This document shows positions 1,438-27,000 of a stretch of 27,584 bases of DNA, piece after piece. Source of the stretch: Promethearchaeota archaeon (GTDB lineage: Archaea > Asgardarchaeota > Lokiarchaeia > Sigyniarchaeales > SOKP01); contig JAFGGO010000145.1 in NCBI GenBank assembly GCA_016930515.1, positions 1-27,584 on the forward strand, in the 5' to 3' direction. The translations under genes were made by a program, and so were the position numbers. The notes beneath the pieces were generated by a model, which was not told the origin of the DNA, ran no database searches, and saw only the letters and a list, made by a program, of their open reading frames with translations. How positions within the stretch are numbered: position 1 is the stretch's first letter; each line of letters starts with the position of its first letter.

Positions 1438-2370
1438 TCAATCCTCAAATAAGTCAGTTGATAAATATCGTTCTCCCGTGTCGGGTAATAATATGACCAA
1501 GTTCTCGTCTTTACTGAGATCCTTCGAAGCAACATTCAAGCCCGCCCACGTTGCAGCACCCGAGGATATTCCTACGAAAATCCCTTCCATTCGCGCCAAG
1601 TTGCGAGAAGTAGCGACTGCGTCTTCGTATTTCACAGGAATGATTTTTTCGTATATTTCGGTATTAAGTACATCAGGAACGAACCCTGCTCCAATTCCTT
1701 GTATCTTATGAGGCCCCGGAGAGCCACCCGATAGGACTGGAGAATCCTTTGGTTCAACTCCATAAATCTTTACCCTTTCTCCAACGTTTTTTTTAAGAAT
1801 TTCGCCAATACCCGTTATGGTTCCACCCGTGCCGATACCTGCAACAAATCCGTCAATTCTTCCTGCTAAATCGTTGAAGATTTCTTTTGCCGTGGTTTTC
1901 CTGTGAATCTCGGGATTAGCAAGGTTTTTAAATTGTTGGGGAATAAATATCGAACCATTTTTCGCGGCTAAATCTTGCGCTTTTTGTATTGCTCCCTTCA
2001 TGCCTTCTTGAGCGGGCGTTAAAACTAGTTCCGCACCATATGCTTTTAAGATTTTGCGTCTCTCCATCGACATGCTTTCAGGCATTGTTAAGATCAGCCT
2101 GTAGCCCTTTGCGGCGCATACGAGCGCAAGTCCAATTCCCGTATTTCCAGATGTGGGTTCCACGATCGTGGTTCCGGGGGAAATAAGACCGTCATCTTCG
2201 GCTTTTTCGATCATCGCCAAGGCGATCCTATCTTTTACGCTAGAACCTGGATTGAACGCCTCGATCTTTGCGAACACATTTGGCTCGATATCACGGGCAA
2301 TTTTATTTAATTTTACTAAGGGAGTCCTCCCAATCGTTTCTAAAATGTTATCGAAATAGTATTTTACCAA
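1438..2370 (-). CDS. cysK: Cysteine synthase A (O-acetylserine sulfhydrylase)
   Basis: [16 protein letters not shown] (PLP Lys), [33 protein letters not shown] start with GGTGA upstream. Confidence 0.96.
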
Positions 2371-2418
2371 TTTTATTCACCTTTTAAGTTGCATTAAATA
2401 ATTATTAATTATAGGAAG

Positions 2419-3267
2419 TTAAATGCCTCCTCCATATTCTCCGTAATAAATATCGTATTTTTTCTTTTTTTGAGCAAGTTGTTCCTTTTTGTCGAGAATC
2501 TTGTTCTCTAAATGTTCAATTCTTGCATCTAAGGTTGAAAGGGCAATTGCTAATGGATCGGGCAAATCTCCGTGAGAAAGATCAATCTTTTTACGTTTTT
2601 TACCCTCCGTCGAAATTATTCTTCCAGGAACGCCTACAACCACCGAGTTAGGGGGGACATCGTTCACAACAACGGAATTTGCGCCAATTTTCACATTTTC
2701 TCCAATCACTATTGGCCCCAAGAGTTTTGCTCCGGAACCTATGACTATATTGTCGCCAAGCGTTGGATGCCGCTTGACGCGCTCGGTCGTCGTTCCACCT
2801 AAAACGACACCTTGATATATAGTGACATTGTTACCAATTTCTGCCGTCTCGCCAATGACAACGCCCCCTCCGTGATCAATAAAAAAGTCCTTTCCGATTT
2901 TCGCACCAGGATGAATCTCAACGCCTGTTAAGTTTCGCGCTATTTCGGAGAGATATCTCGGTACAAAAGGCATTCCAATCATCCAAAAAAAGTGAGCAAT
3001 GCGATGAAATAGTATTGCCTTGACTCCTGGGTAGCTTGTTAACACTTCGACGAGGGAATTAGCAGCCGGATCCTTGTTGAAAGCTGCGCTCACATCTGAA
3101 ACGAAAAAATTCAAGATCTCTTGAAGGTTGTTATTGATGGTATCTTGTTTTAATTCTTCCGTCTCGAATTTTAAATCTAAAATACACTCTGCGCAATAAT
3201 TGTGCTGACCTTTTTCTTTTGAGCCCAAACCTTTACCACAATTCAGGCATCGAATGAATTCTTCCAT
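2419..3267 (-). CDS. cysE: Serine O-acetyltransferase with an N-terminal CxxC..CxxC extension
   Basis: DPAA..EVL.SYPG, EIHPGAKIG, FIDHG, KRHPTLG, hexapeptide repeats, VVGVPGR and a C-terminal Ile. Co-oriented directly upstream of cysK. Confidence 0.94.
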   Translation of the reverse strand: MEEFIRCLNCGKGLGSKEKGQHNYCAECILDLKFETEELKQDTINNNLQEILNFFVSDVSAAFNKDPAANSLVEVLTSYPGVKAILFHRIAHFFWMIGMPFVPRYLSEIARNLTGVEIHPGAKIGKDFFIDHGGGVVIGETAEIGNNVTIYQGVVLGGTTTERVKRHPTLGDNIVIGSGAKLLGPIVIGENVKIGANSVVVNDVPPNSVVVGVPGRIISTEGKKRKKIDLSHGDLPDPLAIALSTLDARIEHLENKILDKKEQLAQKKKKYDIYYGEYGGGI

Positions 3268-13292: not shown

Positions 13293-14237
13293 TTAATATT
13301 TTATTCTCTTTTCTTTTATATAATCAAACACGGAATACGCAGCAACGACGCCTTCAGCAACACCTGTAATGGCTTGTTTGAAGGGAGCGTCGGCAACATC
13401 TCCAGCGGCATATATTCCAGGTATATTGGTCTCTGATCTCCTGTTTATATTTATTTCGTTTTTCTGGTTTAGCTTGACACCTAATTGTTCTACCACTTTG
13501 GATTTAGGCACGGAACCAATCTCAATAAAAACACCATCTACCTTGAATTCCTTACCGTTTTCAAAAATAATCGCATTAACAGAGAAATCTCCCTTTATTT
13601 CAGTAATTTGAGTTTCAGTAATGATTTCAATCTTTTTATTCCCTTCCAATCTTTTCTTATTAATGGGTTCTGCTCTTATCTCTTCACCACGATAAATAAT
13701 ATACACTTTTGTAGCGTGTTGAGAGAGAAATAATGCTTCTTTTACAGCAGAATCGCTTCCACCTATAACGGCCAGCGTTTTATCCTTAAAAAACATACCA
13801 TCACATGTTGCACAATACGACACTCCCTTTCCAGTAAATTCTTCTTCTCCAGGAATATTTAATTTTTTTCTCTCAGAACCCGTGGCGACGATTATTGTTT
13901 TTGTTTTAAACGACATGAAAAATGATTTCAATAAGAAATGATCTCCTTCTTTCTCGATATTTGTTATCTCATCTGTAATATAAGGTATATTTAATGAATT
14001 CATGTGCTCTCGAAACATCTCCATTAACCCAGTGCCACTAGTTGATGTAATGCCGGGATAATTCTCAACTAAATGAGTCGAAGCAATGAGGCCTCCAAAG
14101 GTTTTACCAATTACAAGTAAATCTAATGCAAAGCGTGCGGCATAAATTGCTGCACCTATAGCTGAAGGGCCTCCTCCTAAGATTATGACATCGTATATCT
14201 TGTTTGGATCTGGCATTCCAGAACTAATATTGAACAT
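13293..14237 (-). CDS. trxB: Thioredoxin reductase (NADPH/FAD)
   Basis: GGGPSA FAD motif, VENYPG, GVSYCATCDG, IGGSDSA, YRG, AAGDV. Overlaps the upstream PDO by 14 bp. Confidence 0.92.
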   Translation of the reverse strand: MFNISSGMPDPNKIYDVIILGGGPSAIGAAIYAARFALDLLVIGKTFGGLIASTHLVENYPGITSTSGTGLMEMFREHMNSLNIPYITDEITNIEKEGDHFLLKSFFMSFKTKTIIVATGSERKKLNIPGEEEFTGKGVSYCATCDGMFFKDKTLAVIGGSDSAVKEALFLSQHATKVYIIYRGEEIRAEPINKKRLEGNKKIEIITETQITEIKGDFSVNAIIFENGKEFKVDGVFIEIGSVPKSKVVEQLGVKLNQKNEININRRSETNIPGIYAAGDVADAPFKQAITGVAEGVVAAYSVFDYIKEKRIKY

Positions 14238-14907
14238 GTATGTTTCCTCCTATTAGCGATCTCAGGACCACATCAGCCCCAACTAAACCCGATATGGCTT
14301 TTTGGTCGTTAACGATAGTATATGGAACTCCCGCAGCGTCATAATATTGTCCAATATCCATATTAGCGGTTATATCTACAACTACAGATCTTATCTTTCC
14401 TTTTGATGCAATTGCAAACAAATTTGCTATTGTAGCCATTTGGGGGCAATAAGGACAGGAATTAGTAATCATGACCTTGATTGTTGACGGTTCAATGCGA
14501 TCTAAATTTTGAAGGATAGTCGCCTCATAATAATTTGGTGCTCCAGCAAAGGCGAAAAGAGCCTGAACAAACGGTTGTATCTCTGGACCTTGGGGCGTGG
14601 CTAAATAGCGAATGATTTCTCTTCCATCTTCGTTTAAGAAAAGTATCGTTGGAACTCTCTGGATGTCGTAATCTCGAGCAAATTGTGGATTATTGTCAAT
14701 AGAAAGTTCCTCTATCGTAAGCATTCCGTTGGAGTTTGCTTCGTATATGCGCAATAGCGACATGAATTGTCCACAATCCATACAAGCTTGAATCGTTCTT
14801 CCGTCAGGTTCCACGCGCTTTGAAGTAAATACCTTTATTTTCACGGGTTTTTTGAGTTTAGCCATTTCTTGTTTTATTATGTCTTTGTATTTTTGATCTG
14901 AAGACAT
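14224..14907 (-). CDS. Protein disulfide oxidoreductase (PDO; AhpF N-terminal-like, two thioredoxin folds)
   Basis: CMDC and CPYC active-site motifs, RVPT and GVP cis-Pro motifs, P.G.E..PF. GGTGA RBS. Confidence 0.88.
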   Translation of the reverse strand: MSSDQKYKDIIKQEMAKLKKPVKIKVFTSKRVEPDGRTIQACMDCGQFMSLLRIYEANSNGMLTIEELSIDNNPQFARDYDIQRVPTILFLNEDGREIIRYLATPQGPEIQPFVQALFAFAGAPNYYEATILQNLDRIEPSTIKVMITNSCPYCPQMATIANLFAIASKGKIRSVVVDITANMDIGQYYDAAGVPYTIVNDQKAISGLVGADVVLRSLIGGNIHVQY

Positions 14908-15065
14908 TCTAAATCACCTTTAATGATATGATTTATAGTAATGATTACAATAATTATTGAGAAATTGAATTTAAAATATCTTATGATATTAATTTAAAAA
15001 CTTAATTCAGTTCTTTTTTGTTAGTGATGAATAGGAAATTGTTATTGCTAATAATTTATAAATAA

Positions 15066-15755
15066 TTACGAATACATTCCATCGTAATCCCTTTTCCCTT
15101 TCGTGAGTTTTTCTAACAAATCCTGGGGTGTAAAGGCACCAATTAATTGATCTTTTTCGTTAATTACGGTGTGAGGAACACCCTGCACATTATATTTTAT
15201 CGCTAAGTCTGGATTCATATTAGTATCTATAATCTCGACTTTAATTTTCCCCTTCGATAAAATCGCTATTAAATTCAATATGGGAATAACAGCAGGACAG
15301 TAAGGGCAAGTTAATGTCATAAAAAGTTTAATTGTTGATTTTTGCACATTTTTCAGACTAGAAAGAATTGCGTCCTTGTAAAAAGAAGATACTCCTGAGT
15401 AATATCGTAAGGTTTCAATAAATGGTGCTAACTCTGAACCCATGGGATTAGCCATGTATCTTATGAGTTCTTTCCCATCTTCATCCAAAAACAGTATTGT
15501 GGGTATTTTTGTAATATTAAATTTTTGAGCTTCTTCAGGTTGCTCTTCGGTTGAATACTCTTTTATTTCTAACTTGCCACCTGAATTCTTTGCTAATAAA
15601 TCTAATAGATTAAGCGTTCCATCGCACATCATACATCTTCTTGTTTTAGAACCATCCTCGCTTGTCTTGAAATCTGTAAAGAACATCAAGGAAATATTCT
15701 CTTTAAGGGGTTCCAAGCCTTTTTGAATGTTTTTTAATTCGTTTTCATTAAACAT
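15066..15755 (-). CDS. Protein disulfide oxidoreductase (PDO), second paralog
   Basis: CMMC and CPYC motifs, KIPT, GVPHT. ATG at 15755 (MFNENEL) matches the length of the paralog better than the ORF-track start at 15836. Confidence 0.88.
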   Translation of the reverse strand: MFNENELKNIQKGLEPLKENISLMFFTDFKTSEDGSKTRRCMMCDGTLNLLDLLAKNSGGKLEIKEYSTEEQPEEAQKFNITKIPTILFLDEDGKELIRYMANPMGSELAPFIETLRYYSGVSSFYKDAILSSLKNVQKSTIKLFMTLTCPYCPAVIPILNLIAILSKGKIKVEIIDTNMNPDLAIKYNVQGVPHTVINEKDQLIGAFTPQDLLEKLTKGKRDYDGMYS

Positions 15756-15912
15756 AGAGAAAATATTATTAATCGTTTTTGATACTAAATAAATTGAAAA
15801 AATTCTAATAAAAATTTCTAAACCAAATCCTAACACAATAGTCTCATTTATAAGGAATAATGATGTAATGTTAAATAAGGAACTATAAAAATGAAAAGGT
15901 TTTTAACTTATC

Positions 15913-16038
15913 ATGAACGAAACGATCGAAGAATTGGGAAATTGCCAAGAGTGTAACAAAGAAATAAACCTTGGAAACGCTTGGAGAGTAGATGAAAAAT
16001 ATTATTGCCAAGAATGCTTTGAAAAATTAAGCATATAA
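15913..16038 (+). CDS. Small zinc-finger protein, 41 aa (not in ORF track)
   Basis: Manual translation MNETIEELGNCQECNKEINLGNAWRVDEKYYCQECFEKLSI gives CxxC-x17-CxxC. It sits in an otherwise empty intergenic region and is followed by T-rich tracts. Confidence 0.75.
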   Translation: MNETIEELGNCQECNKEINLGNAWRVDEKYYCQECFEKLSI

Positions 16039-16242
16039 TTATTTTTCACTTTCTATTTTTCTTTATCGAGTTTATAGACGCCTCATTTATTCATATTAAA
16101 TTTTGATCATTCAAATAATACTTGCCTAATCATAGGTTTCAGCTAATTTTAACTAATATTTAATTAAATAAGTGTATTTCATTATATGGAGGATTGATTC
16201 CGTTAATATTGAATTATTAACAATAAAATGAAAATTTTAAGA

Positions 16243-17253
16243 TTATTCCAACAATAAATCGCACATATCACGAAGTTGAAAGGGAATTTTCGCCTTTTTG
16301 CCATAAACTTTGAGGATCCAAAAGGCATCGGGACAATAAGCGGTTATAAAATTAAGTTTATTCGTTATTGAGCCATTTTGTTCACAAATTTTTTTTATTT
16401 CTTCCATTCTAGCTGTTGCGATAGCATCGATGACATCCGTGCGTAATTGATGACCAATGCCTCCACCACAACACGAATACGGGACTTCTTTAAGAATTTT
16501 AAATCCCGTTTTTTCGTATAAATCCTCTAATTCATCAACAATCCCAGGAATTTTACCATTTCGTAGTGGACAGGCGTGTTGGATGAGCAAATTACCTTCT
16601 TTTTTTACTTTTAAAGGCGTGAGAAACTCGGTAAAATATTTGACCTCAAGATTCAGATCAGAATACTCTTTCTTGAAAACCATGTAGCAGCTTGGACAGG
16701 CAGTAATAATTTTTTTAAATCCTCTCTTTTCAAATAAATTTCGATTTCTTTGTACTAATTCCCGGTATTCCTCAACAGCTCCATTACATAAAATGGGATA
16801 TCCGCAACAAATTTCTTCTTCTAGGATTGTAAATTCAATTTTCTTTTTAAGTAAATATTTAATTATATTTTTAGCATATTTTGGGGTTTTTACCGTTGTA
16901 AAACACCCCAAATAAAGAAGTGTTTCGCTCGATGGATTTACTCCGTTAATTTGTTTCACCCGGCTTTTATTCATCGAAAATGGCGTTCCGTATTCCAATA
17001 TATCGTGTAGAGTTTTGGCCAATCCATCAATGGTGTTTCCATCTTCTAAAAACTTGCGTTTTAATTCAAATCTTTCTTCTGACATACCACAATCGTTACA
17101 ATGAATGCAGTTGTACACAGACAAATAATCTTCTTGGGAAAAAAAAAAATCCTCTTTTGACGCTAGTAATTTCGTTACTTGTTCGTTGGTGAGAAAGTGG
17201 TCAGGATCGGCCTTTTTACATGGACAATCGCACGTCTCTTTTTCTATATTCAT
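16243..17253 (-). CDS. CCG-domain (Fe-S)-binding protein (HdrD/GlpC-like)
   Basis: CIHCNDC, YLGC, EICCG, TACPSC, QHAC, CCGGG, TAYCPD. Confidence 0.85.
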   Translation of the reverse strand: MNIEKETCDCPCKKADPDHFLTNEQVTKLLASKEDFFFSQEDYLSVYNCIHCNDCGMSEERFELKRKFLEDGNTIDGLAKTLHDILEYGTPFSMNKSRVKQINGVNPSSETLLYLGCFTTVKTPKYAKNIIKYLLKKKIEFTILEEEICCGYPILCNGAVEEYRELVQRNRNLFEKRGFKKIITACPSCYMVFKKEYSDLNLEVKYFTEFLTPLKVKKEGNLLIQHACPLRNGKIPGIVDELEDLYEKTGFKILKEVPYSCCGGGIGHQLRTDVIDAIATARMEEIKKICEQNGSITNKLNFITAYCPDAFWILKVYGKKAKIPFQLRDMCDLLLE

Positions 17254-17291
17254 TTTAACACGGTTTCAAATGTTAATTAAATATATAACTC

Positions 17292-18284
17292 TCACATCAA
17301 GAGTTCAAAAATATCCATCGCTTTTGGATGGATCTTGCATTGCTTGCTAAACCTCCTTAGTATCCACCAACAACTCACGCAATAAGTAGTAGCGTAATTT
17401 ACATCTTGTCTATCAAAATCCCTCATGCGTTTTTTTGCTACCCCGTCAATAACATCCGTTCTATGCATATATCCCAAACCACCACCGCAACACCAATGGG
17501 GAACGTTTTCCACTTCGTACCCGCTTTTTTTTAAAACCTCATCTACACTTTCAGAAACATCCTCACGACCTCGATTAATTAATTGACACAAATGCTGGAC
17601 TTCAACCTTTCCAGATTTTAATTCGCTTGATGGTTTCAAGTAATCAGCAACAAACATAAATTCGGTATCAGAACTCATTTCGGGCTCATAATAATTATTG
17701 AACAAAAAATAACAGGCGGGACAAAGGCAGATGATCTTTTTGTATTTACTAAAAATTTCAATATTTTCTTTCTTACAAGTCTCAAATTCTTCCATCGACC
17801 CCGAGGCAAACCAAGGCCATCCACAACAAATCTCCTTGTCCAAGATGGTGAATTCAATTCCTTGCTTGAGTAAATATTTTAAAGAGTGTTCGGTATATTT
17901 AGGAATTCTAATGGTAGATAAGCACCCCATGAAATATAGCGTTTCGGATTCTTTAGGAATTCCAGGAGGTCTTTTAATTCGCATTTGATTGGTGGGATAC
18001 GGAGTGCGAAAATCATGGAAACATCGACGCATTTCCTCAAGACCTTGAATGGTAAAACCTTGCTTTAAGAACTCCTGCTTGAGTTTAATGCGCTCCATTT
18101 CTGTTTCACACAGCCCACAATGGACACAATTATATAATTTCTTAAAATCCTCTTGGGAGAAACGAAGTAAATCCAAATCCCTTACCATTTCCTTTACCTC
18201 ATCATCTGGGTAGAAATTATTAGGGTCTATTTCTTCGGTAGGATATTTTTTTCGATCTGTTGGATATTTTAAGTAATCTCTCAA
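17292..18284 (-). CDS. CCG-domain (Fe-S)-binding protein (HdrD/GlpC-like), tandem paralog
   Basis: CVHCGLC, FMGC, EICCG, CPAC, QHLC, CCGGG, YCVSC. TTG start with GGTG upstream. Confidence 0.85.
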   Translation of the reverse strand: MRDYLKYPTDRKKYPTEEIDPNNFYPDDEVKEMVRDLDLLRFSQEDFKKLYNCVHCGLCETEMERIKLKQEFLKQGFTIQGLEEMRRCFHDFRTPYPTNQMRIKRPPGIPKESETLYFMGCLSTIRIPKYTEHSLKYLLKQGIEFTILDKEICCGWPWFASGSMEEFETCKKENIEIFSKYKKIICLCPACYFLFNNYYEPEMSSDTEFMFVADYLKPSSELKSGKVEVQHLCQLINRGREDVSESVDEVLKKSGYEVENVPHWCCGGGLGYMHRTDVIDGVAKKRMRDFDRQDVNYATTYCVSCWWILRRFSKQCKIHPKAMDIFELLM

Positions 18285-19403: not shown

Positions 19404-20525
19404 TTGGTTATAATGGAAGATCTTTTCATCATAAACGAGGGGGGACAACTTATCTTTAGTTGGCATCCAAAAGATAAAATTAACAATTTACAGAACAACG
19501 ACGATTTAATTAGCGGTTTTCTTTCTGCACTTAACAGTTTCGCAACGCTAGAAAGAGGAGAGGATATAAAATCCTTAAAATTAAAAGAAACATCAATCAT
19601 ATTTGAAAAGAATGAAAACCATTTTCAAAAATTAACTTTTGTTATTACCACAAAGGATGAATCTTTAATTGAAATATGCCATTCAATCATACACGATCTC
19701 ATGGATCAGTTCACTCAAATCCATAAAGAACGACTTAGCAAGAAGTTTGATGGTCAGATCGATGCATATTTTCCATTCTTAAAACAAGTAGAAAAAACGA
19801 TCTATGATCACGGATTAGATGCCCTAAAGAAGTCAAACGATGAAATCAAAAAAGATGGAATTCTAAAATCTTTTATCTTATTAGAACCAAAAAGTGGTCA
19901 AGTTTTTTATTTAAACGCAAAGCAATTTGTGAGCAAGGAAAAATTAAGTTTTTTAGCACCACTCATCACCAATTCAGCCCGCTTGCTCTATAAAAATAAT
20001 CTAGAGGAAAATATCCATTGGATATTACTTACCACAGCAAGGAACGAAATCTTACTCATAGAAACTAGACAAAAACTGCTTATCCTCAAGCAATATCAAT
20101 TAATTGAATCAATCGAAGAAGACCTTCTTTCTCTTGAATTTTTCAATACGAAAGATATTTATGTGAAAAAACCGAAAAAGATTGTTAAAATCTTTGAGGA
20201 TCTGATATGGGATCCCAAGATTAAACAAATTTATTTAGTAGATTTAGTAGGAAAAGTACTTTATTCTAAAATTATTGACAATACTTATGATTGTAAGGAT
20301 TATATTCCCGAAACGATTAGCTTTCTAACTGCTTCCAAGAAGACAAGTGAGCAAATCTATAGTAGACCCCTTTTTAATTCAAGTATTGGGGGTGAAAAGC
20401 ACCTCACGACTATATGCGTAAATTTTAACAATATTGCACTTATTTTAATTGGAAAAGTTCTGGAATTAAGCGATTTTAACGCAATTCAAAAGATTTGCAA
20501 AGAAATTGTAATCCAACTAAAGTGA
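19404..20525 (+). CDS. Longin-like domain protein with additional roadblock/longin-like C-terminal domains
   Basis: DLFIINEGGQLIF...LISGFLSALNSFA....DIKSL..IIF..FVITT matches the Asgard longin pattern. The C-terminal part has similar beta-beta-alpha patterns (SFILLEPKSG, QIYLVDLVG). Confidence 0.7.
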   Translation: MVIMEDLFIINEGGQLIFSWHPKDKINNLQNNDDLISGFLSALNSFATLERGEDIKSLKLKETSIIFEKNENHFQKLTFVITTKDESLIEICHSIIHDLMDQFTQIHKERLSKKFDGQIDAYFPFLKQVEKTIYDHGLDALKKSNDEIKKDGILKSFILLEPKSGQVFYLNAKQFVSKEKLSFLAPLITNSARLLYKNNLEENIHWILLTTARNEILLIETRQKLLILKQYQLIESIEEDLLSLEFFNTKDIYVKKPKKIVKIFEDLIWDPKIKQIYLVDLVGKVLYSKIIDNTYDCKDYIPETISFLTASKKTSEQIYSRPLFNSSIGGEKHLTTICVNFNNIALILIGKVLELSDFNAIQKICKEIVIQLK

Positions 20526-20713: not shown

Positions 20714-21778
20714 GTGCTTTTTCAGCAAATACCCTTCGAAATGTTATTTTTGACTCATTTAATGATTTACTTGTCTACATTTGGTTTTGGTTTTGCGATT
20801 GCCAACGATTTAATTGGTATTTCTTATATTAAGAATTTGAACGAAATGACGCTCGTTGAAGTCAAAGCGCACAAAATAAATGGTAGAACTGCCGGTTTGA
20901 TTTTTTACTTTTTATCCGCACTATGTATAATAACCGCAGTGATTCCTCGATTTCTTGACAATAAAGTTGATGAATTTTTTATTACAACAATCTTCTGGCA
21001 CACGGGATTTGGTGGTTTTATAGCATTTGTGTTATTTTCAATAAAAATATATATAGCGGTATTCAAGAAAGACCTGATATATGCCAAGGGAAAGATAATT
21101 GGACCAATTGGATTTATCGCATGGGCAATAGCTTATTTTACTTCTAATATCGATTTCTATTTCTATGTAGCGCCCACATTTTCAATGCCGGTACCCTTTT
21201 TAATTCCAAATTACTTGATATCATTAATTATTTCAGTATGTCTAGGAGGGATGTTGTTTGCTTCCATTAAAGCCACCAAGTTTAAGAAATATGGAACAGC
21301 TGACGCAAAATCTAGCCTGCATGGTGTTGCAATGATCCTCCATGGAATCACTTTTGGATACGAGGGAAGCGCCAAGGAACTCGTGGGTACGCCCGTTTTA
21401 TACAAATATGTTTTTCCAAAAACATACCAGTTTTTAGAGCGATACGCAGAAAAAATAGGCCTCAATTTGGAACAGTTAAAAAAACTCAATCTCAATGAAG
21501 CAATGGATAAAGCAATGGAAAAATTCGTAGAAATCGGAATGGCAGAAAAAATCAAGATAGAATGGCTATCAGATCGCGAATTTACGGTGGAATCAATTAA
21601 CTGCTCGACTGCGGTCGTTCGATCTTACATGGACAGGAACGAGCTTACAAATTCTATTTGTCCTTGGGCCATTTTAGCGGCAACTATTGTTAATTCATTA
21701 ACCGGTAAGGACTTAGAAATAAATCCGAGCGAATTTAACACGATTGGTGCAAAGAGCCAATTAAGATTGATGGACTAG
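20714..21778 (+). CDS. Membrane protein (about 5 TM, His-containing) fused to a V4R/MetOD1-like C-terminal domain
   Basis: N-terminal TM segments carry His (AHKING, FWHTG). The soluble C-terminus has a C..(NCST)..ICPWA pattern. GTG start after GAGGT. Confidence 0.55.
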   Translation: MLFQQIPFEMLFLTHLMIYLSTFGFGFAIANDLIGISYIKNLNEMTLVEVKAHKINGRTAGLIFYFLSALCIITAVIPRFLDNKVDEFFITTIFWHTGFGGFIAFVLFSIKIYIAVFKKDLIYAKGKIIGPIGFIAWAIAYFTSNIDFYFYVAPTFSMPVPFLIPNYLISLIISVCLGGMLFASIKATKFKKYGTADAKSSLHGVAMILHGITFGYEGSAKELVGTPVLYKYVFPKTYQFLERYAEKIGLNLEQLKKLNLNEAMDKAMEKFVEIGMAEKIKIEWLSDREFTVESINCSTAVVRSYMDRNELTNSICPWAILAATIVNSLTGKDLEINPSEFNTIGAKSQLRLMD

Positions 21779-21940
21779 TATTGTCAGAAATGTCTAAAAA
21801 GATCATCATACTTTCTTTTAAATCCTTCATATTCTTATTTTTTTAAAGTATTCGTCCCGTTTTTCATATTGGATTCTGTATTTTTCATATTATATATGAT
21901 AATCAACGGATTTAAATACGAATGATGCGATACTTAATTT

Positions 21941-21984: not shown

Positions 21985-22113
21985 ATGAAAGTCGTAAAGA
22001 AAGAAAAAATGACCGCCTCCGCATGCAAGTGCGGAAGCACCTGCCTAACCGCAACTTGTAAGTGTGGAAGCGGTTGCGTTTCCAATGCCTGCAAGTGTGG
22101 AAGCAGTTGCTAA
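21985..22113 (+). CDS. Cys-rich repeat peptide, putative radical SAM/SPASM RiPP precursor (42 aa; not in ORF track)
   Basis: Translation MKVVKKEKMTASACKCGSTCLTATCKCGSGCVSNACKCGSSC has 9 Cys in three 11-aa repeats. Synonymous TGC/TGT variation between repeats indicates coding constraint. AAGGT lies upstream and the RRE-rSAM-SPASM gene starts 86 bp downstream. Confidence 0.88.
   Translation: MKVVKKEKMTASACKCGSTCLTATCKCGSGCVSNACKCGSSC
22024..22110 (+). repeat. Three in-frame 33-bp-period repeats encoding CKCGSxC
   Basis: TGYAAGTGYGGAAGC at 22024, 22057 and 22090. Confidence 0.9.
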
Positions 22114-22199
22114 GCCTTAAAATATAATCTATTTTTTTTATAATCCTTTTTTATTCTAAAACCTCAAAATTTTTATTAAGGACCGTTTTACATTAAGTC

Positions 22200-23462
22200 A
22201 TGTATATTGATTGCCATCCGTATTTATCAAACCATATTTGCTTCCGAAAATACGACGAGATCAACATTTACGACCTTAAAAGCGACGAGTCTTTTATAAT
22301 AGATAACGAGGCCTTCGAGTTACTCAAGCTTGCAAACGGTAAAAATACAAAAACTTATATAATTAACCAATATGTAAAACCAAAACAAGCCGATGTTATT
22401 GAAACTCTAGATTTTTTTATCGAATCAAATATTATTAGATGCGATCATGCACAGATTGAGCCCCAAAGTCCCAATAAAAGTCTCAACGATGATTTGTATA
22501 AGGAAAATCCAACGGTATTCCCATACCTGAAAAACCTCATGTTAAACATTACCGAAAAATGTAATCTTTCTTGCAAGCACTGTTATATTACTAGCAAGAA
22601 TCCCATAGATTTTAAGCTTGACAAGCTCAAGGACATCATTTCAGTGTTTTTCGATTTACAAGGAATAAAGCTCGTCCTTACAGGTGGTGAACCTTTCTTA
22701 TATTCGCAATTAGAAGAGCTACTCGAATTTCTATTGGATTATCCACTCCAAAAGGAAATGCTTTCGAATGGAATGTTGATATCGAAAAATCCTAAAATTG
22801 TCGACTTGTTAAAAAAAAATCATTTTAATGTTTATGTTAGCGTTGATGGTCTTGAAAGAACTCACGACGATTTCAGGGACGCTAACTGCTTTCAATCAAC
22901 CTTAGAAGGTATTAAATATTTGTTAAAGAACGAAATCAATACATCCATAAACACCATGGTTCACAAGCAAAACTTAAACGAATTTCCAGAATTGTTCAAG
23001 CTCGTCAAATCTCTGGGAACTATTAAAAATTGGTCAGTGGATGTTCCAACTTTTGACAAAAACACGCCTAGCGATATAGTTGAAAAATATCAAATCTCTC
23101 CAGAAGAGGGGGGAAAAATCTTAAATGAATACGGTTGGGGAGTTATATACGAGTCAGAAAGCAATAACTATTGTTGCGGTCCGAATCTCATGGCGATTGA
23201 TGTGTCTGGCGTGATTACGAAATGTGGCTTTTTTTACGAGCAAAATGTTGGAAATATTCACGATTTGGGTCTTAAAAAAGGTTGGGAGTTAATTCAGAAA
23301 AAACTTAACTGGCCTTTTACCTCCTTAAAATGTCAAGAAATAAATTGTGAATTCTTAGAAGAATGCAGGGGGGGATGTCGGTATCGAGCGTTTCGAAACA
23401 CGGGTGATGTATTAGGAGTTGATGCTTTTAAATGCGAACAGTTTGGAAAAAGCGTGAAATAA
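22200..23462 (+). CDS. Radical SAM/SPASM-domain peptide maturase with an N-terminal PqqD/RRE-like domain
   Basis: CNLSCKHC (CX3CX2C), TGGEP, SVDG...HD.FR. SPASM cysteines YCC..Gx4C..Cx4Cx5Cx3Cx18C. The first ~80 aa show the strands-then-helices pattern (IYDL..F.I...AFELLKLANG.....II....V.ETL..F....II) typical of PqqD/RRE. Confidence 0.9.
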   Translation: MYIDCHPYLSNHICFRKYDEINIYDLKSDESFIIDNEAFELLKLANGKNTKTYIINQYVKPKQADVIETLDFFIESNIIRCDHAQIEPQSPNKSLNDDLYKENPTVFPYLKNLMLNITEKCNLSCKHCYITSKNPIDFKLDKLKDIISVFFDLQGIKLVLTGGEPFLYSQLEELLEFLLDYPLQKEMLSNGMLISKNPKIVDLLKKNHFNVYVSVDGLERTHDDFRDANCFQSTLEGIKYLLKNEINTSINTMVHKQNLNEFPELFKLVKSLGTIKNWSVDVPTFDKNTPSDIVEKYQISPEEGGKILNEYGWGVIYESESNNYCCGPNLMAIDVSGVITKCGFFYEQNVGNIHDLGLKKGWELIQKKLNWPFTSLKCQEINCEFLEECRGGCRYRAFRNTGDVLGVDAFKCEQFGKSVK

Positions 23463-23639: not shown

Positions 23640-24098
23640 ATGTCAATTATATACACATTCGAAGAATTCCTCCTGATAAATGAATTATGGATAATCGATA
23701 CTAATGGAATGTGTTTCTTTCATAAATCGACAAGTGAAGCGAAATCTTTAAAAGGAGAATCGGTCCTTCTTGGTGGCTTCTTTTCCGCAATTATAACATT
23801 TTCTCACGAGCTCTCTGGCAGAGATATAAAGCGATTAGAAACACAGAAAGCTAAAATACTGTTTTTCAAGGAAGGAAACCTCATTTTCATAGTTGGTGCC
23901 GATGTTCATCATTCAGAAAAGAAGATAAGGCAAAGAATAAAAATTATCAAAAATCTTTTTATAAATAAATATCGCGACGAATTAATTTCGTTTGATGGCG
24001 ATATCTCAAAATTTAAAAAATTCGAAGACGATCTAGAAAATGTTTTTACAAAAATATCGAAAATTGATAAATGGGGTAAAGCAATATTAGATTTATAA
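23640..24098 (+). CDS. Longin-like domain protein
   Basis: INELWIIDTNGMCFFH...LLGGFFSAI.TFS.EL....IK.L...ILF.....IFIV, then F..KY....FDGD...F..F. Confidence 0.7.
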   Translation: MSIIYTFEEFLLINELWIIDTNGMCFFHKSTSEAKSLKGESVLLGGFFSAIITFSHELSGRDIKRLETQKAKILFFKEGNLIFIVGADVHHSEKKIRQRIKIIKNLFINKYRDELISFDGDISKFKKFEDDLENVFTKISKIDKWGKAILDL

Positions 24099-24136: not shown

Positions 24137-24382
24137 ATGTCAAAAAAACACGAAATCATAAGAACTGAAGAAGATATAAGCCCTTTAAACAGGCAAATCA
24201 TAAATAGTGTCTGCCACAAATGTAATTTTTATGCTGAGAATCAGGAATATTGGGAAAAGGAATACGAATGTGGCGCTTATAAGCTCATTCGTCAATTAAT
24301 ATTAGAAAAGAAACTAAGCATTGACGATATCGAAGATACCTTTAAGAAAATCGATTTAAATCGCTCAAGAGACCTAAAATAA
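24137..24382 (+). CDS. Small hypothetical protein with CxxC..ECGA motif
   Basis: 81 aa, CHKCNFY and YECGAY. Co-oriented with its neighbours, with short spacers. Confidence 0.65.
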   Translation: MSKKHEIIRTEEDISPLNRQIINSVCHKCNFYAENQEYWEKEYECGAYKLIRQLILEKKLSIDDIEDTFKKIDLNRSRDLK

Positions 24383-24413: not shown

Positions 24414-25925
24414 TTGTACGATTGCATAGTTATTGGAGCGGGCGTTGGTGGTCTTTCCTGTGCGGCTAAATTAGCTAGTAAAGGAAAGAAAATTATTGTG
24501 ATTGAGAAAATTAATCACATTGGTGGTACCAGTCACGTGTTTAATAGAGGAGGGTATGTCTTTCCCATAGGACCACTTTCGTTTAGCTTTCCTAAACTCG
24601 TGCAAACAATTTTAAAAGACATAGGCATAACAGAAGACATTACTTTTCAGAGAAATCACTTTCACTTGCTATCACCACAGATTGACATCACCTATTCTCA
24701 GGATTGGAACAATTTTAAAGCAACATTAATAGATTTTTTTGAGAGCGATGCTAACGGAATAAATAGTTTTTTTAAGGAATTTAATAAAGTCCTAGGCGCA
24801 ATTCAAGGAATTTATGAATGGAATCCAGACTTTAATGTAGGGAGAAAGCGTAATAAAGCCCTAAAAGAATTATTTTTGCACGCAGAAGAGTCTCGGATCA
24901 TTTCCGAAAGTAACTCAACTTCTTCTAGGGTTATTCTTCAAGGTTTATTAAAAAACGATGGTTTAATTAGGCTCTTAGGTTCTCAAGGAAGCTATGAACC
25001 CGTCATGACAATGCTCCACCTGGCATTCATGTGGAATGTGATGTCCTTGGAAGGCATTTGGTTTCCTTCTTGTGGAATTCACGGCATCAATCAATTACTT
25101 GCTGATTTGATAAAATGCTCTGGTGGGGAAATAATGTTAAACTCCCCAGTTAGCAAAATTTTAATCAGAAACGGAAAGGCGTTTGGTGTTCTATTGGCAA
25201 ACGGTAAAGAATATCTGGCAGAATGGATCGTTGCTAATGCGGATTATAAGAAAGTCTTTCTTGAATTAATAGATCCTTCTCATTTAACCCATGATCACTT
25301 AGATTCGGTTCAAAACACGGATTATACAGGTTCGGAACTCTGCGTTTATCTAGGAATAGCCCCAAATAAGGTAGATCTAAGCAAGTTAACAACAAATCAT
25401 TTCTTTTATCGAAGTAAAATCACTCAGGATACCGATCCAGAGGATTTCGAAAACAAGGAAATCGAAATCTGCCTGTGGTCAAACAAATCAAAAGATTTTG
25501 CACCCGAGGGTAAAAAAAGCATTATTTTACGAGTAAACATGGCATATTCTCATTTTAAGGATTGGAGAACTGGTGAGAAAAAAAGAAAAATGGGATACAA
25601 GGAATTTAAATACCATTTAGCAAAAAGACTTATCAATGTGGTGGAGAAAATCTTACCTGGACTTGCTTCGGCAATTGAAGTCATGGAAGTGGCCACGCCC
25701 TTAACTTATCAGGATTGGGGGCAACGTTATCTTGGCTCAATCGCAGGATGGACGAGAGATTTGAGAAGAATAAGGTTCAAAACGAAATCGTTATTTGAGA
25801 CACCTATCGATCATTTATTATTAGTGGGAATATATTCGTTTTTAGAACCCTTTTTAGGAGGCTATCCCGTGTCGATTTACTCCGGAAATATGGGAGCAGA
25901 TAAGATTTTGGAAGATTTAAAATAA
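24414..25925 (+). CDS. FAD-dependent oxidoreductase, phytoene desaturase (CrtI)-like family
   Basis: YDCIVIGAGVGGL, IEK...GG, GGEIMLNSPV..I, VANAD, ATPLT....GSI.G. Confidence 0.85.
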   Translation: MYDCIVIGAGVGGLSCAAKLASKGKKIIVIEKINHIGGTSHVFNRGGYVFPIGPLSFSFPKLVQTILKDIGITEDITFQRNHFHLLSPQIDITYSQDWNNFKATLIDFFESDANGINSFFKEFNKVLGAIQGIYEWNPDFNVGRKRNKALKELFLHAEESRIISESNSTSSRVILQGLLKNDGLIRLLGSQGSYEPVMTMLHLAFMWNVMSLEGIWFPSCGIHGINQLLADLIKCSGGEIMLNSPVSKILIRNGKAFGVLLANGKEYLAEWIVANADYKKVFLELIDPSHLTHDHLDSVQNTDYTGSELCVYLGIAPNKVDLSKLTTNHFFYRSKITQDTDPEDFENKEIEICLWSNKSKDFAPEGKKSIILRVNMAYSHFKDWRTGEKKRKMGYKEFKYHLAKRLINVVEKILPGLASAIEVMEVATPLTYQDWGQRYLGSIAGWTRDLRRIRFKTKSLFETPIDHLLLVGIYSFLEPFLGGYPVSIYSGNMGADKILEDLK

Positions 25926-26303: not shown

Positions 26304-26687
26304 TTATTTATGTAAATTTTTAAGGTATTCAAAGACAGCTTTATCTTTTTCGGCAGGTCTTCTTTCGGGCACTGCAATATAATCCGTTTTGAAAGTCTCG
26401 TAAAAGTCCGTTCTCATAAACAAGTTGCAATAGCACGCACCATGCTCTTTCACATCTAAAGGTGCATAATCGCATGGACACATTAAATCCCGATCTAGCT
26501 TTTTATTCCCAGAAGCTAGCCGGCAAGGACAGGATTGATACCCATTCTTTTTTTTATTGGATACTAATCCTTCAACCAAGTCGTTTAATGTTTGTTCGTT
26601 CTTAACCAAGATGTAATTGTTTCTTTCGCATATTTTTTTTAAATATTCCATCATTCCTTCCTTTGTTTCCATGTTCATTTCATTCAC
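26304..26687 (-). CDS. Ferredoxin:thioredoxin reductase catalytic-subunit-like protein
   Basis: CPCR, CPC, CYC.LF motifs and VPERRP. GGAGGTGA RBS, and it overlaps the glutaredoxin stop. Confidence 0.92.
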   Translation of the reverse strand: MNEMNMETKEGMMEYLKKICERNNYILVKNEQTLNDLVEGLVSNKKKNGYQSCPCRLASGNKKLDRDLMCPCDYAPLDVKEHGACYCNLFMRTDFYETFKTDYIAVPERRPAEKDKAVFEYLKNLHK

Positions 26688-27000
26688 CTCCTTCTTTTAA
26701 TAGATCTTCGTATTTATTCGGGTCGTATCCCACCACGTGACCTTTTGAGCAGGTTAGGAACGGATAAGAAATCCTTTCTTGGTAATTTGTTCGTAGATAT
26801 TCTAAAATCCTTGCCTTATCATTTGGATCTATTGTATCAACATCGATATAACTATATTTGATGTTATTTTCGTCCAAATACCGCTTGCATTTTTTACACC
26901 ACATGCATGTCGATAATGTGTATATAAAAATATCCTCGTTAACGCCGTTTTCTCCTTCTACATTCTGGGCGTATTGTTCTTTTAAATCTTCTATTGACAT
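26680..27000 (-). CDS. Glutaredoxin (NrdH-like)
   Basis: YTLSTCMWC.K.K.YL, YIDVD, SYP, VVGY. Confidence 0.88.
   Translation of the reverse strand: MSIEDLKEQYAQNVEGENGVNEDIFIYTLSTCMWCKKCKRYLDENNIKYSYIDVDTIDPNDKARILEYLRTNYQERISYPFLTCSKGHVVGYDPNKYEDLLKEGGE

Follow-up and report, generated by a model that had tools for sequence, protein, structure and literature searches.

The window, as the whole stretch of 27,584 nucleotides analysed here is called, is contig C14 of a Promethearchaeota genome assembly that is 94% complete. It encodes a short cysteine-rich peptide, a radical SAM enzyme and a small three-cysteine protein, with the following features.

21806..21832, + strand: distal operator of the NikR type, with a pair of TCATAY half-sites at a distance of 21 bp; it ranks second among the sites of the 4-Mb genome.
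21864..21890, + strand: proximal operator in an activator-type position, with 20 bp between its end and the TATA box; best site genome-wide.
21911..21917, + strand: putative TATA box of the peptide gene, conserved in aligned promoters.
21985..22113, + strand: precursor peptide gene, 42 aa by ORF translation.
21985..22023, + strand: basic leader of 13 residues, the likely ligand of the RRE; M1, an aliphatic residue at 3 and K5 are nearly invariant.
22024..22110, + strand: three CKCxxxC cores (22024-22044, 22057-22077 and 22090-22110); 115 of the 116 cores in the family have the Lys.
22132..22139, + strand: run of eight Ts 3′ of the peptide stop codon, a possible archaeal terminator.
22170..22176, + strand: TATA-like box 29-30 bp before the enzyme start, found in 11 of 11 related loci; a separate promoter, with no operator pair seen.
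22200..23462, + strand: putative RRE-radical SAM-SPASM maturase, 420 aa; RRE at about aa 1-85, SPASM Cys 326, 342, 378, 383, 389, 393 and 412.
24137..24382, + strand: 81-aa three-cysteine accessory protein (C26, C29 and C45 invariant), found at 98 of the 143 loci of the family but missing from all of 40 other loci.

The 42-codon ORF is as originally described, with nine Cys, three CKCGSxC units and a terminal Cys, and the 86-bp gap between the peptide gene and the radical SAM start at 22200 is present in the window. The 4-Mb genome contains just one triple CxCxxxC ORF, and a shuffled copy contains none. Compared with the L186 orthologue, 16 codons differ synonymously and six non-synonymously, and 20 of 26 base changes fall at third positions. 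The single occurrence, the lack of any in the shuffle and the synonymous excess argue that the ORF is real and not due to chance; judged by its substitutions, it is a genuine gene under purifying selection.

The family comprises 96 distinct peptides, of which 86 contain one core and ten contain three. The usual precursor has 20 residues (19-21), with a basic leader, a single CKCxxxC core and a strong ribosome site. The leader runs for 13 residues to the first Cys in 90 of the 96 peptides, rather than the 12 proposed at first; 90 end in Cys, and six run one residue beyond the last Cys. Core positions 4-6 are variable and can all be Gly, and some cores consist only of Cys, Lys and Gly. Selenocysteine was looked for in the cores of family peptides, and none was seen. 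Triple cores are confined to the clade containing the window (support 99), in which a single-core form is sister to the triple one; the enzyme tree is a quick version, from which no direction of transfer is drawn. On this tree, the triple repeat is a local expansion within one Asgard family. The system had been presented as archaeal and Asgard-like, but anaerobic bacteria, with one core in a peptide of 20 residues, proved to make up most of its members.

At just 20 codons, the usual precursor is so short that annotation misses the family. Bacterial precursors, which are missed by a Cys-rich ORF filter (at least 20 aa and four Cys), were located with a motif scan. At E up to 10, neither the window peptide nor any of ten relatives matched an NCBIfam precursor model, 20-residue queries being near the filter limit, and no Pfam model, including the metallothioneins, matched the window peptide at E up to 1. 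The best match in an Atlas search with the peptide scored 0.79 and is unnamed. Upstream of 16 of 92 bacterial peptide genes, compared with 0.6 in shuffles, the 5′ leader contains a stem-loop 16-54 bp ahead of the peptide start, in which the loop is (A/G)UGAA and the stem varies (e.g. L010, L028, L035, L057, L062 and L064). This hairpin is a possible protein-binding or stabilizing element.

The enzyme has the radical SAM motif and full SPASM Cys set that had been claimed for it. The CxxxCxxC motif is C121/125/128, PF04055 scores above cut-off and the seven SPASM Cys are invariant in 51 sequences. An RRE-like N-terminal domain was also borne out: the model has strands followed by three helices (pLDDT 91), and a profile search of aa 1-90 gave PqqD (5sxy) as the best PDB match (E 0.0067). 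On its own, the N-terminal domain of the window enzyme is missed by the Pfam PqqD model, which matches two of 50 family members. The enzyme model aligns from its N-terminus to SkfB (Z 25.3) and SuiB (Z 24.4), and its structure matches are SkfB, anSME, SuiB and CteB at Z 24-25. By alignment, three of the seven SPASM Cys probably serve a first auxiliary cluster and four a second, which would leave an open iron site; an open auxiliary iron site has been proposed for the thioether-forming CrpC (PMC13692751). The SPASM domain also contains two invariant Arg.

The enzyme falls in no named NCBIfam family, with a best score of 112 bits here and 128 among six relatives (cut-offs 180-850). Models far below cut-off include ACGX, GeoRSP, SynChlorMet, mycofactocin, AlbA, PapB, StsB, SbtM and AhbD/NirJ; identity with GeoRSP, SynChlorMet or SbtM is ruled out by the scores. 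Homologues comprise about 90 Asgard proteins at 47-71% identity, followed by others at 26-38% from Nitrospirota, Desulfobacterota, Actinomycetota, Chloroflexota, Archaeoglobi, Methanoperedens and Hydrothermarchaeota. The close homologues named by taxon are nearly all from Promethearchaeota/Lokiarchaeota, with one labelled Hodarchaeota, and the enzyme tree follows taxonomy. These homologues and the longin-domain genes of the window identify its host as an Asgard archaeon of the Loki type.

The original prediction was of a two-gene system, and had missed the gene for the 81-aa three-Cys protein. This gene lies directly behind the enzyme gene in most Asgard loci, including L186-L189; in the window, unlike the related loci examined, a longin-domain gene separates the two. 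Nine bacterial loci, mostly of Desulfobacterota, encode the protein as a fusion with the enzyme, and in Nitrospirota it is doubled. Two tandem copies of its gene stand behind the enzyme in Asgard family f19 (L183-L185). Pfam, NCBIfam, PDB sequences, Foldseek and VIA-align gave no clear match (best Z 3.8), and an Atlas search returned only unnamed clusters of the protein's own family; this lack of matches is no proof of a new fold. Since the protein stays with the enzyme and not with the copper islands described below, it is probably a maturation helper that binds a metal or a cluster.

A Cys-rich ORF near homologous radical SAM genes had been expected, and was found. Kin are not independent in the genome and locus counts, according to which the peptide accompanies the enzyme at 101 of 143 loci and is missing from all of 40 other SPASM loci; among 101 Nitrospirota genomes, 47 have the enzyme, and the peptide is found in 41 of these (37 at E 0.001, and four more that are weaker or of 19 residues) and in none of the 54 without it; and among 201 Asgard genomes, 14 have both, four the enzyme only (two at contig ends) and two the peptide only. 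The roughly 100 enzyme-family loci with the peptide belong to Nitrospirota, Desulfobacterota, Actinomycetota, Archaeoglobi, Methanoperedens and Asgard archaea. The co-oriented 86-bp layout is not kept across the family, in which the peptide and enzyme genes can be side by side, divergent, several kb apart or separated by 96-675 kb. Within the window's family, each has its own TATA-like box.

The reported lack of a dedicated protease or exporter extends to the family, as no exporter, peptidase or immunity gene recurs among the neighbours of 115 loci. The neighbours of the bacterial enzymes are mostly redox genes, of which those for ferredoxin, rubrerythrin, 2-oxoacid oxidoreductase and NifS/NifU-like proteins recur; no dedicated oxidoreductase family common to all lineages was found near the system. 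A 121-aa cupin-looking protein, with no Pfam match at 1e-5, is encoded at L050:6053-6418 and at nine other bacterial loci, close to the system.

Neither the motif nor the system was found described in the literature searched, which included few subscription journals. An earlier bioinformatic mention is possible; six further predicted sactipeptide groups appear in the supplement of PMC10288494. The literature search found no characterized Asgard RiPP, in agreement with the earlier statement. The system is real, and works like RRE-radical SAM-SPASM RiPP systems while lying outside every named one testable here. It is apparently an undescribed three-gene system common to many anaerobic bacteria and Asgard archaea.

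The operator matrix was built from other genomes, leaving out the host genome, in which it ranks the two window sites first and second and the site of the cbiM/nikM importer gene eighth. All 12 related peptide promoters contain TCATAY pairs with a 21-bp period, and eight carry them twice; the gap between the proximal operator and the TATA box is 20 bp in ten and 24 bp in two. In two other Asgard families the paired spacing is equal and the half-site is a variant. TCATAY is the half-site of E. coli NikR (PMC7055735). The window operators are direct repeats rather than the E. coli palindrome; the orientation of NikR half-sites is known to vary (PMC545781). The host genome contains one NikR gene; NikR is present in 169 of 201 Asgard genomes and so has no discriminating value among them.

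The 21-bp-period motif, at 12 bits or more, precedes cbiM/nikM at 16 of 28 related loci, a set in which L235 is mis-cut at a contig edge, compared with 0.33% of other gene starts; other periods are found at 1-5 of the 28. Many of the cbiM sites, by eye, cover or follow the likely promoter. Importers of the CbiM type can carry cobalt. In archaea, activators typically bind upstream of the BRE/TATA and repressors over or behind the promoter (PMC5512572). From the peptide operator lying upstream of the TATA box and many cbiM sites lying over or behind the likely promoter, we infer that metal excess would switch the importer off and the peptide on, with NikR as the probable regulator at the peptide operator. 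Among bacterial peptide genes, neither a NikR-type nor any other shared operator was found; a sigma-70-like promoter is present at 42 of 86 enzyme-linked copies, which look constitutive. The third-best operator of the host genome belongs to a TrmO/TsaA-like gene (C45:20757-21328; L239:1365-1829), which may therefore share the metal regulon. Two more intergenic operator-like sites are situated at contig ends (C93:12957 and C142:24993), with their target genes beyond the assembly.

Several Nitrospirota carry extra peptide genes far from the enzyme. Copies with a CKCHxSC core, in which the fourth residue is His, adjoin genes for copper-type P1B ATPases, a MerR regulator and YHS-domain thioredoxin reductases. 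The neighbouring ATPases score above the copper-type cut-off; one is truncated at a contig end, and one exceeds the cadmium-type cut-off as well. A P1B ATPase gene lies within 3.7 kb of 14 of 21 CKCHxSC copies (seven of the first nine, and seven of 12 held out) and of none of 45 enzyme-adjacent control loci; the copper-island copies are interrelated, with about three gene arrangements, and these counts therefore overstate independence. Most of the remaining copies have genes of the same island type nearby. Twenty of the 21 lack a promoter-like site of their own and are therefore probably read with the island; no CsoR-like palindrome was found near the copper-island copies. The enzyme is present in every genome holding a CKCHxSC copy, which argues that the copies still need maturation. 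In Methanoperedens-type archaea (L012, L013 and L113), a His core lies beside the enzyme, with no ATPase in the fetched flanks. One extra peptide copy (L276) adjoins acetyl-CoA synthase genes. Duplicate peptide genes are also found within single genomes (L027:1758 and 3201; G019 C124 and C275; L321:3351 and 5035), and both L321 copies are inside the same copper island.

StsA/StsB (PMC10288494; NCBIfam NF045574) and SkfB (PDB 6efn) resemble the present system in having an RRE-dependent radical SAM-SPASM enzyme and alternating Cys (CxC) in a small-residue core, and SkfB is the top sequence and structure match of the enzyme. Six catalytic-proximity positions were taken from PMC10288494. Placed by motif landmarks, these residues are Y-T-L-S-G-F here, compared with F-F-T-S-H-Q in CteB; StsB and SkfB have Y-T-I-S and Y-T-F-S at the first four, and differ at positions 5-6. 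The BLOSUM sum is 16 against StsB, 14 against SkfB and -1 against CteB. However, the enzyme scores 70 bits with the StsB model (cut-off 625), the core ends at the third Cys and so lacks a C-terminal acceptor arm for a hairpin, and the three-Cys gene is additional. SCIFF/CteB, PapB, QhpD and CrpA/CrpC are also RRE-radical SAM-SPASM systems with seven SPASM Cys, but the Asp/Glu acceptor motif of SCIFF/CteB, PapB, QhpD and CrpC is missing here. The analogy originally drawn with SCIFF and the ranthipeptides fails because the core contains no Asp/Glu acceptor and the proximity residues resemble those of StsB, SkfB and SbtM, not CteB. To judge from its residues, the core excludes an Asp/Glu-linked ranthipeptide; Lys2, the sole invariant non-Cys candidate acceptor, may form a Cys-Lys ranthionine. 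The archaeal CrpA (PMC13692751) likewise contains repeats of a Cys motif and is suspected of a role with metals, but its mass is 29 kDa, and CrpC is a member of TIGR04463, which is not among the 25 best matches here; CrpA/CrpC was rejected as a different system.

A radical SAM-SPASM enzyme, SbtM (TIGR04082), can make a thiooxazole ring (PMC11002830). SbtM shares the first four proximity residues with the present enzyme, and these residues therefore cannot separate a sactionine from a thiooxazole; it has eight SPASM Cys compared with seven here, and the similarity is generic only (56-80 bits). Captophorins (fontiphorin, oxazolin and bufferins; PMC13097082) also combine repeated Lys-Cys motifs with a link to copper stress, and their thiooxazoles bind copper with the thiol retained (PMC13097082). 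Signal peptides are present in bufferins (PMC12538549). A maturase of the captophorin type, MNIO (PF05114), was not found in the 94%-complete host genome. Captophorins are marked by a 5-thiooxazole, with loss of four H per motif and an absorbance at about 305 nm. The present peptides, in their Lys-Cys motif and copper-island setting, are suggestive of this group. Metallothioneins, too, are tiny, Cys-rich and intracellular; the present peptides differ in their leader, their near-obligate co-occurrence with a maturase and the lack of a Pfam match. The nickel storage proteins Hpn and Hpn-like of H. pylori are NikR-controlled (PMC7055735), which may be compared with the nickel-regulator-type sites here.

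We consider it somewhat better than an even prospect that these genes form a three-gene RiPP system of anaerobes making an intracellular, metal-buffering, enzyme-modified peptide. Redox, metal handling or a cofactor, all intracellular, had been suggested as roles; metal handling, probably inside the cell, is favoured, and a redox cofactor less so. The RRE would bind the basic leader of the precursor, and the enzyme, with SAM, would oxidize each CKCxxxC core once or more, a core Cys occupying the open site on the first auxiliary cluster. The product would be a rigid frame that retains sulfur donors, either free thiols or those of a thiooxazole, and could so bind excess soft metals, Ni or Co in Asgard archaea and Cu in the case of the CKCH copies; tripling of the core would give more capacity per leader. 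The Asgard NikR-type sites common to the peptide and the cbiM/nikM importer, together with the Nitrospirota copper islands, point to this link with metals. The redox genes neighbouring the bacterial enzymes also fit a redox role.

With the gene pair unchanged, the product might instead be made when nickel or cobalt is short, to scavenge or chaperone the metal within the cell and deliver it to hydrogenase or CO dehydrogenase, NikR repressing both importer and peptide. This would suit the operator common to the two, the usual action of NikR as a repressor (PMC545781), the proximity of cbiM to the enzyme (6.5-8 kb) in several Asgard loci and the L276 copy beside acetyl-CoA synthase genes. It is rather unlikely, however, given that the peptide sites stop 20-24 bp short of the TATA box on its upstream side rather than covering it, that the extra bacterial copies are in efflux islands, which act at metal excess, and that no exporter or receptor for scavenging recurs. 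A redox cofactor, which seems to us unlikely, is where the redox-gene neighbours (ferredoxin, rubrerythrin, 2-oxoacid oxidoreductase and NifS/NifU-like) would lead, along with the terminal Cys in 90 of 96 peptides, the two invariant SPASM Arg, the strong promoters and ribosome sites and the best NCBIfam scores, which are with decarboxylating AhbD/NirJ-type enzymes. Those scores are nevertheless far below cut-off, six peptides run past the last Cys by one residue and ten have internal repeats, no dedicated oxidoreductase family is common to all lineages, and the copper islands would be left unexplained.

The peptide could also be an unmodified mini-metallothionein, its composition and nine Cys being like those of metallothioneins, with the enzyme acting elsewhere, for example on the three-Cys protein. 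Peptide and enzyme are transcribed separately and can be 96-675 kb apart, and the metal links involve the peptide gene only. Against this, the leader is conserved and Cys-free, the enzyme has an RRE, no Pfam metallothionein matches, and the peptide is found in none of the 54 Nitrospirota genomes without the enzyme, the copper-island copies occurring only alongside it; we regard this explanation as improbable. An exported antimicrobial or signalling sactipeptide is very improbable: the peptide is cationic, and the enzyme fold and proximity residues are like those of SkfB and StsB, but the neighbours of the 115 loci include no recurring exporter, peptidase or immunity gene, and the near-invariant core and taxonomy-following enzyme tree look like housekeeping.

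If the metal-buffering explanation is accepted, a thioether ring, most likely from sulfur to alpha-carbon, would have about an even chance of being the modification; a thiooxazole or other thiol-keeping oxidation appears less likely, and some other chemistry less likely again. The seven-Cys SPASM favours the thioether, which had been proposed originally and is one of two serious candidates. Use of all three Cys in thioethers would make for weak metal binding. With a substrate of just 20 residues, the chemistry should be easy to determine. We suggest, tentatively and as the less likely outcome, a captophorin counterpart that works without oxygen, or else a new chemistry, in which the radical SAM enzyme and the three-Cys helper make each core a thiol-keeping metal ligand; the product would be an enzyme-matured metallothionein of strict anaerobes, from Nitrospirota to Asgard archaea, switched on at nickel or copper excess. 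The RiPP family is widespread, occurring in about half of the sampled Nitrospirota genomes and in several archaeal groups including Asgard. Its proposed function is metal buffering in anaerobes dependent on nickel and iron-sulfur enzymes, possibly with NikR acting as an activator in an archaeon.

Other genes of the window may be mentioned briefly. A phytoene-desaturase-like FAD oxidoreductase (24414-25925) has relatives in 14 family loci, archaeal and bacterial, and is possibly a loosely linked fourth gene. Longin-domain proteins, of a eukaryotic signature type, flank the system (19404-20525 and 23640-24098). The 354-aa protein encoded at 20714-21778, with several membrane segments and a soluble C-terminal part, has no match in Pfam; it precedes the peptide in L186 too. 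By inspection, thiol-redox genes are located at 13293-18284 and 26304-27000, and encode a thioredoxin reductase, two thioredoxin-fold proteins, two CCG-domain proteins, a ferredoxin-thioredoxin reductase and a glutaredoxin. Genes for a cysteine synthase and a serine acetyltransferase are present at 1438-3267.
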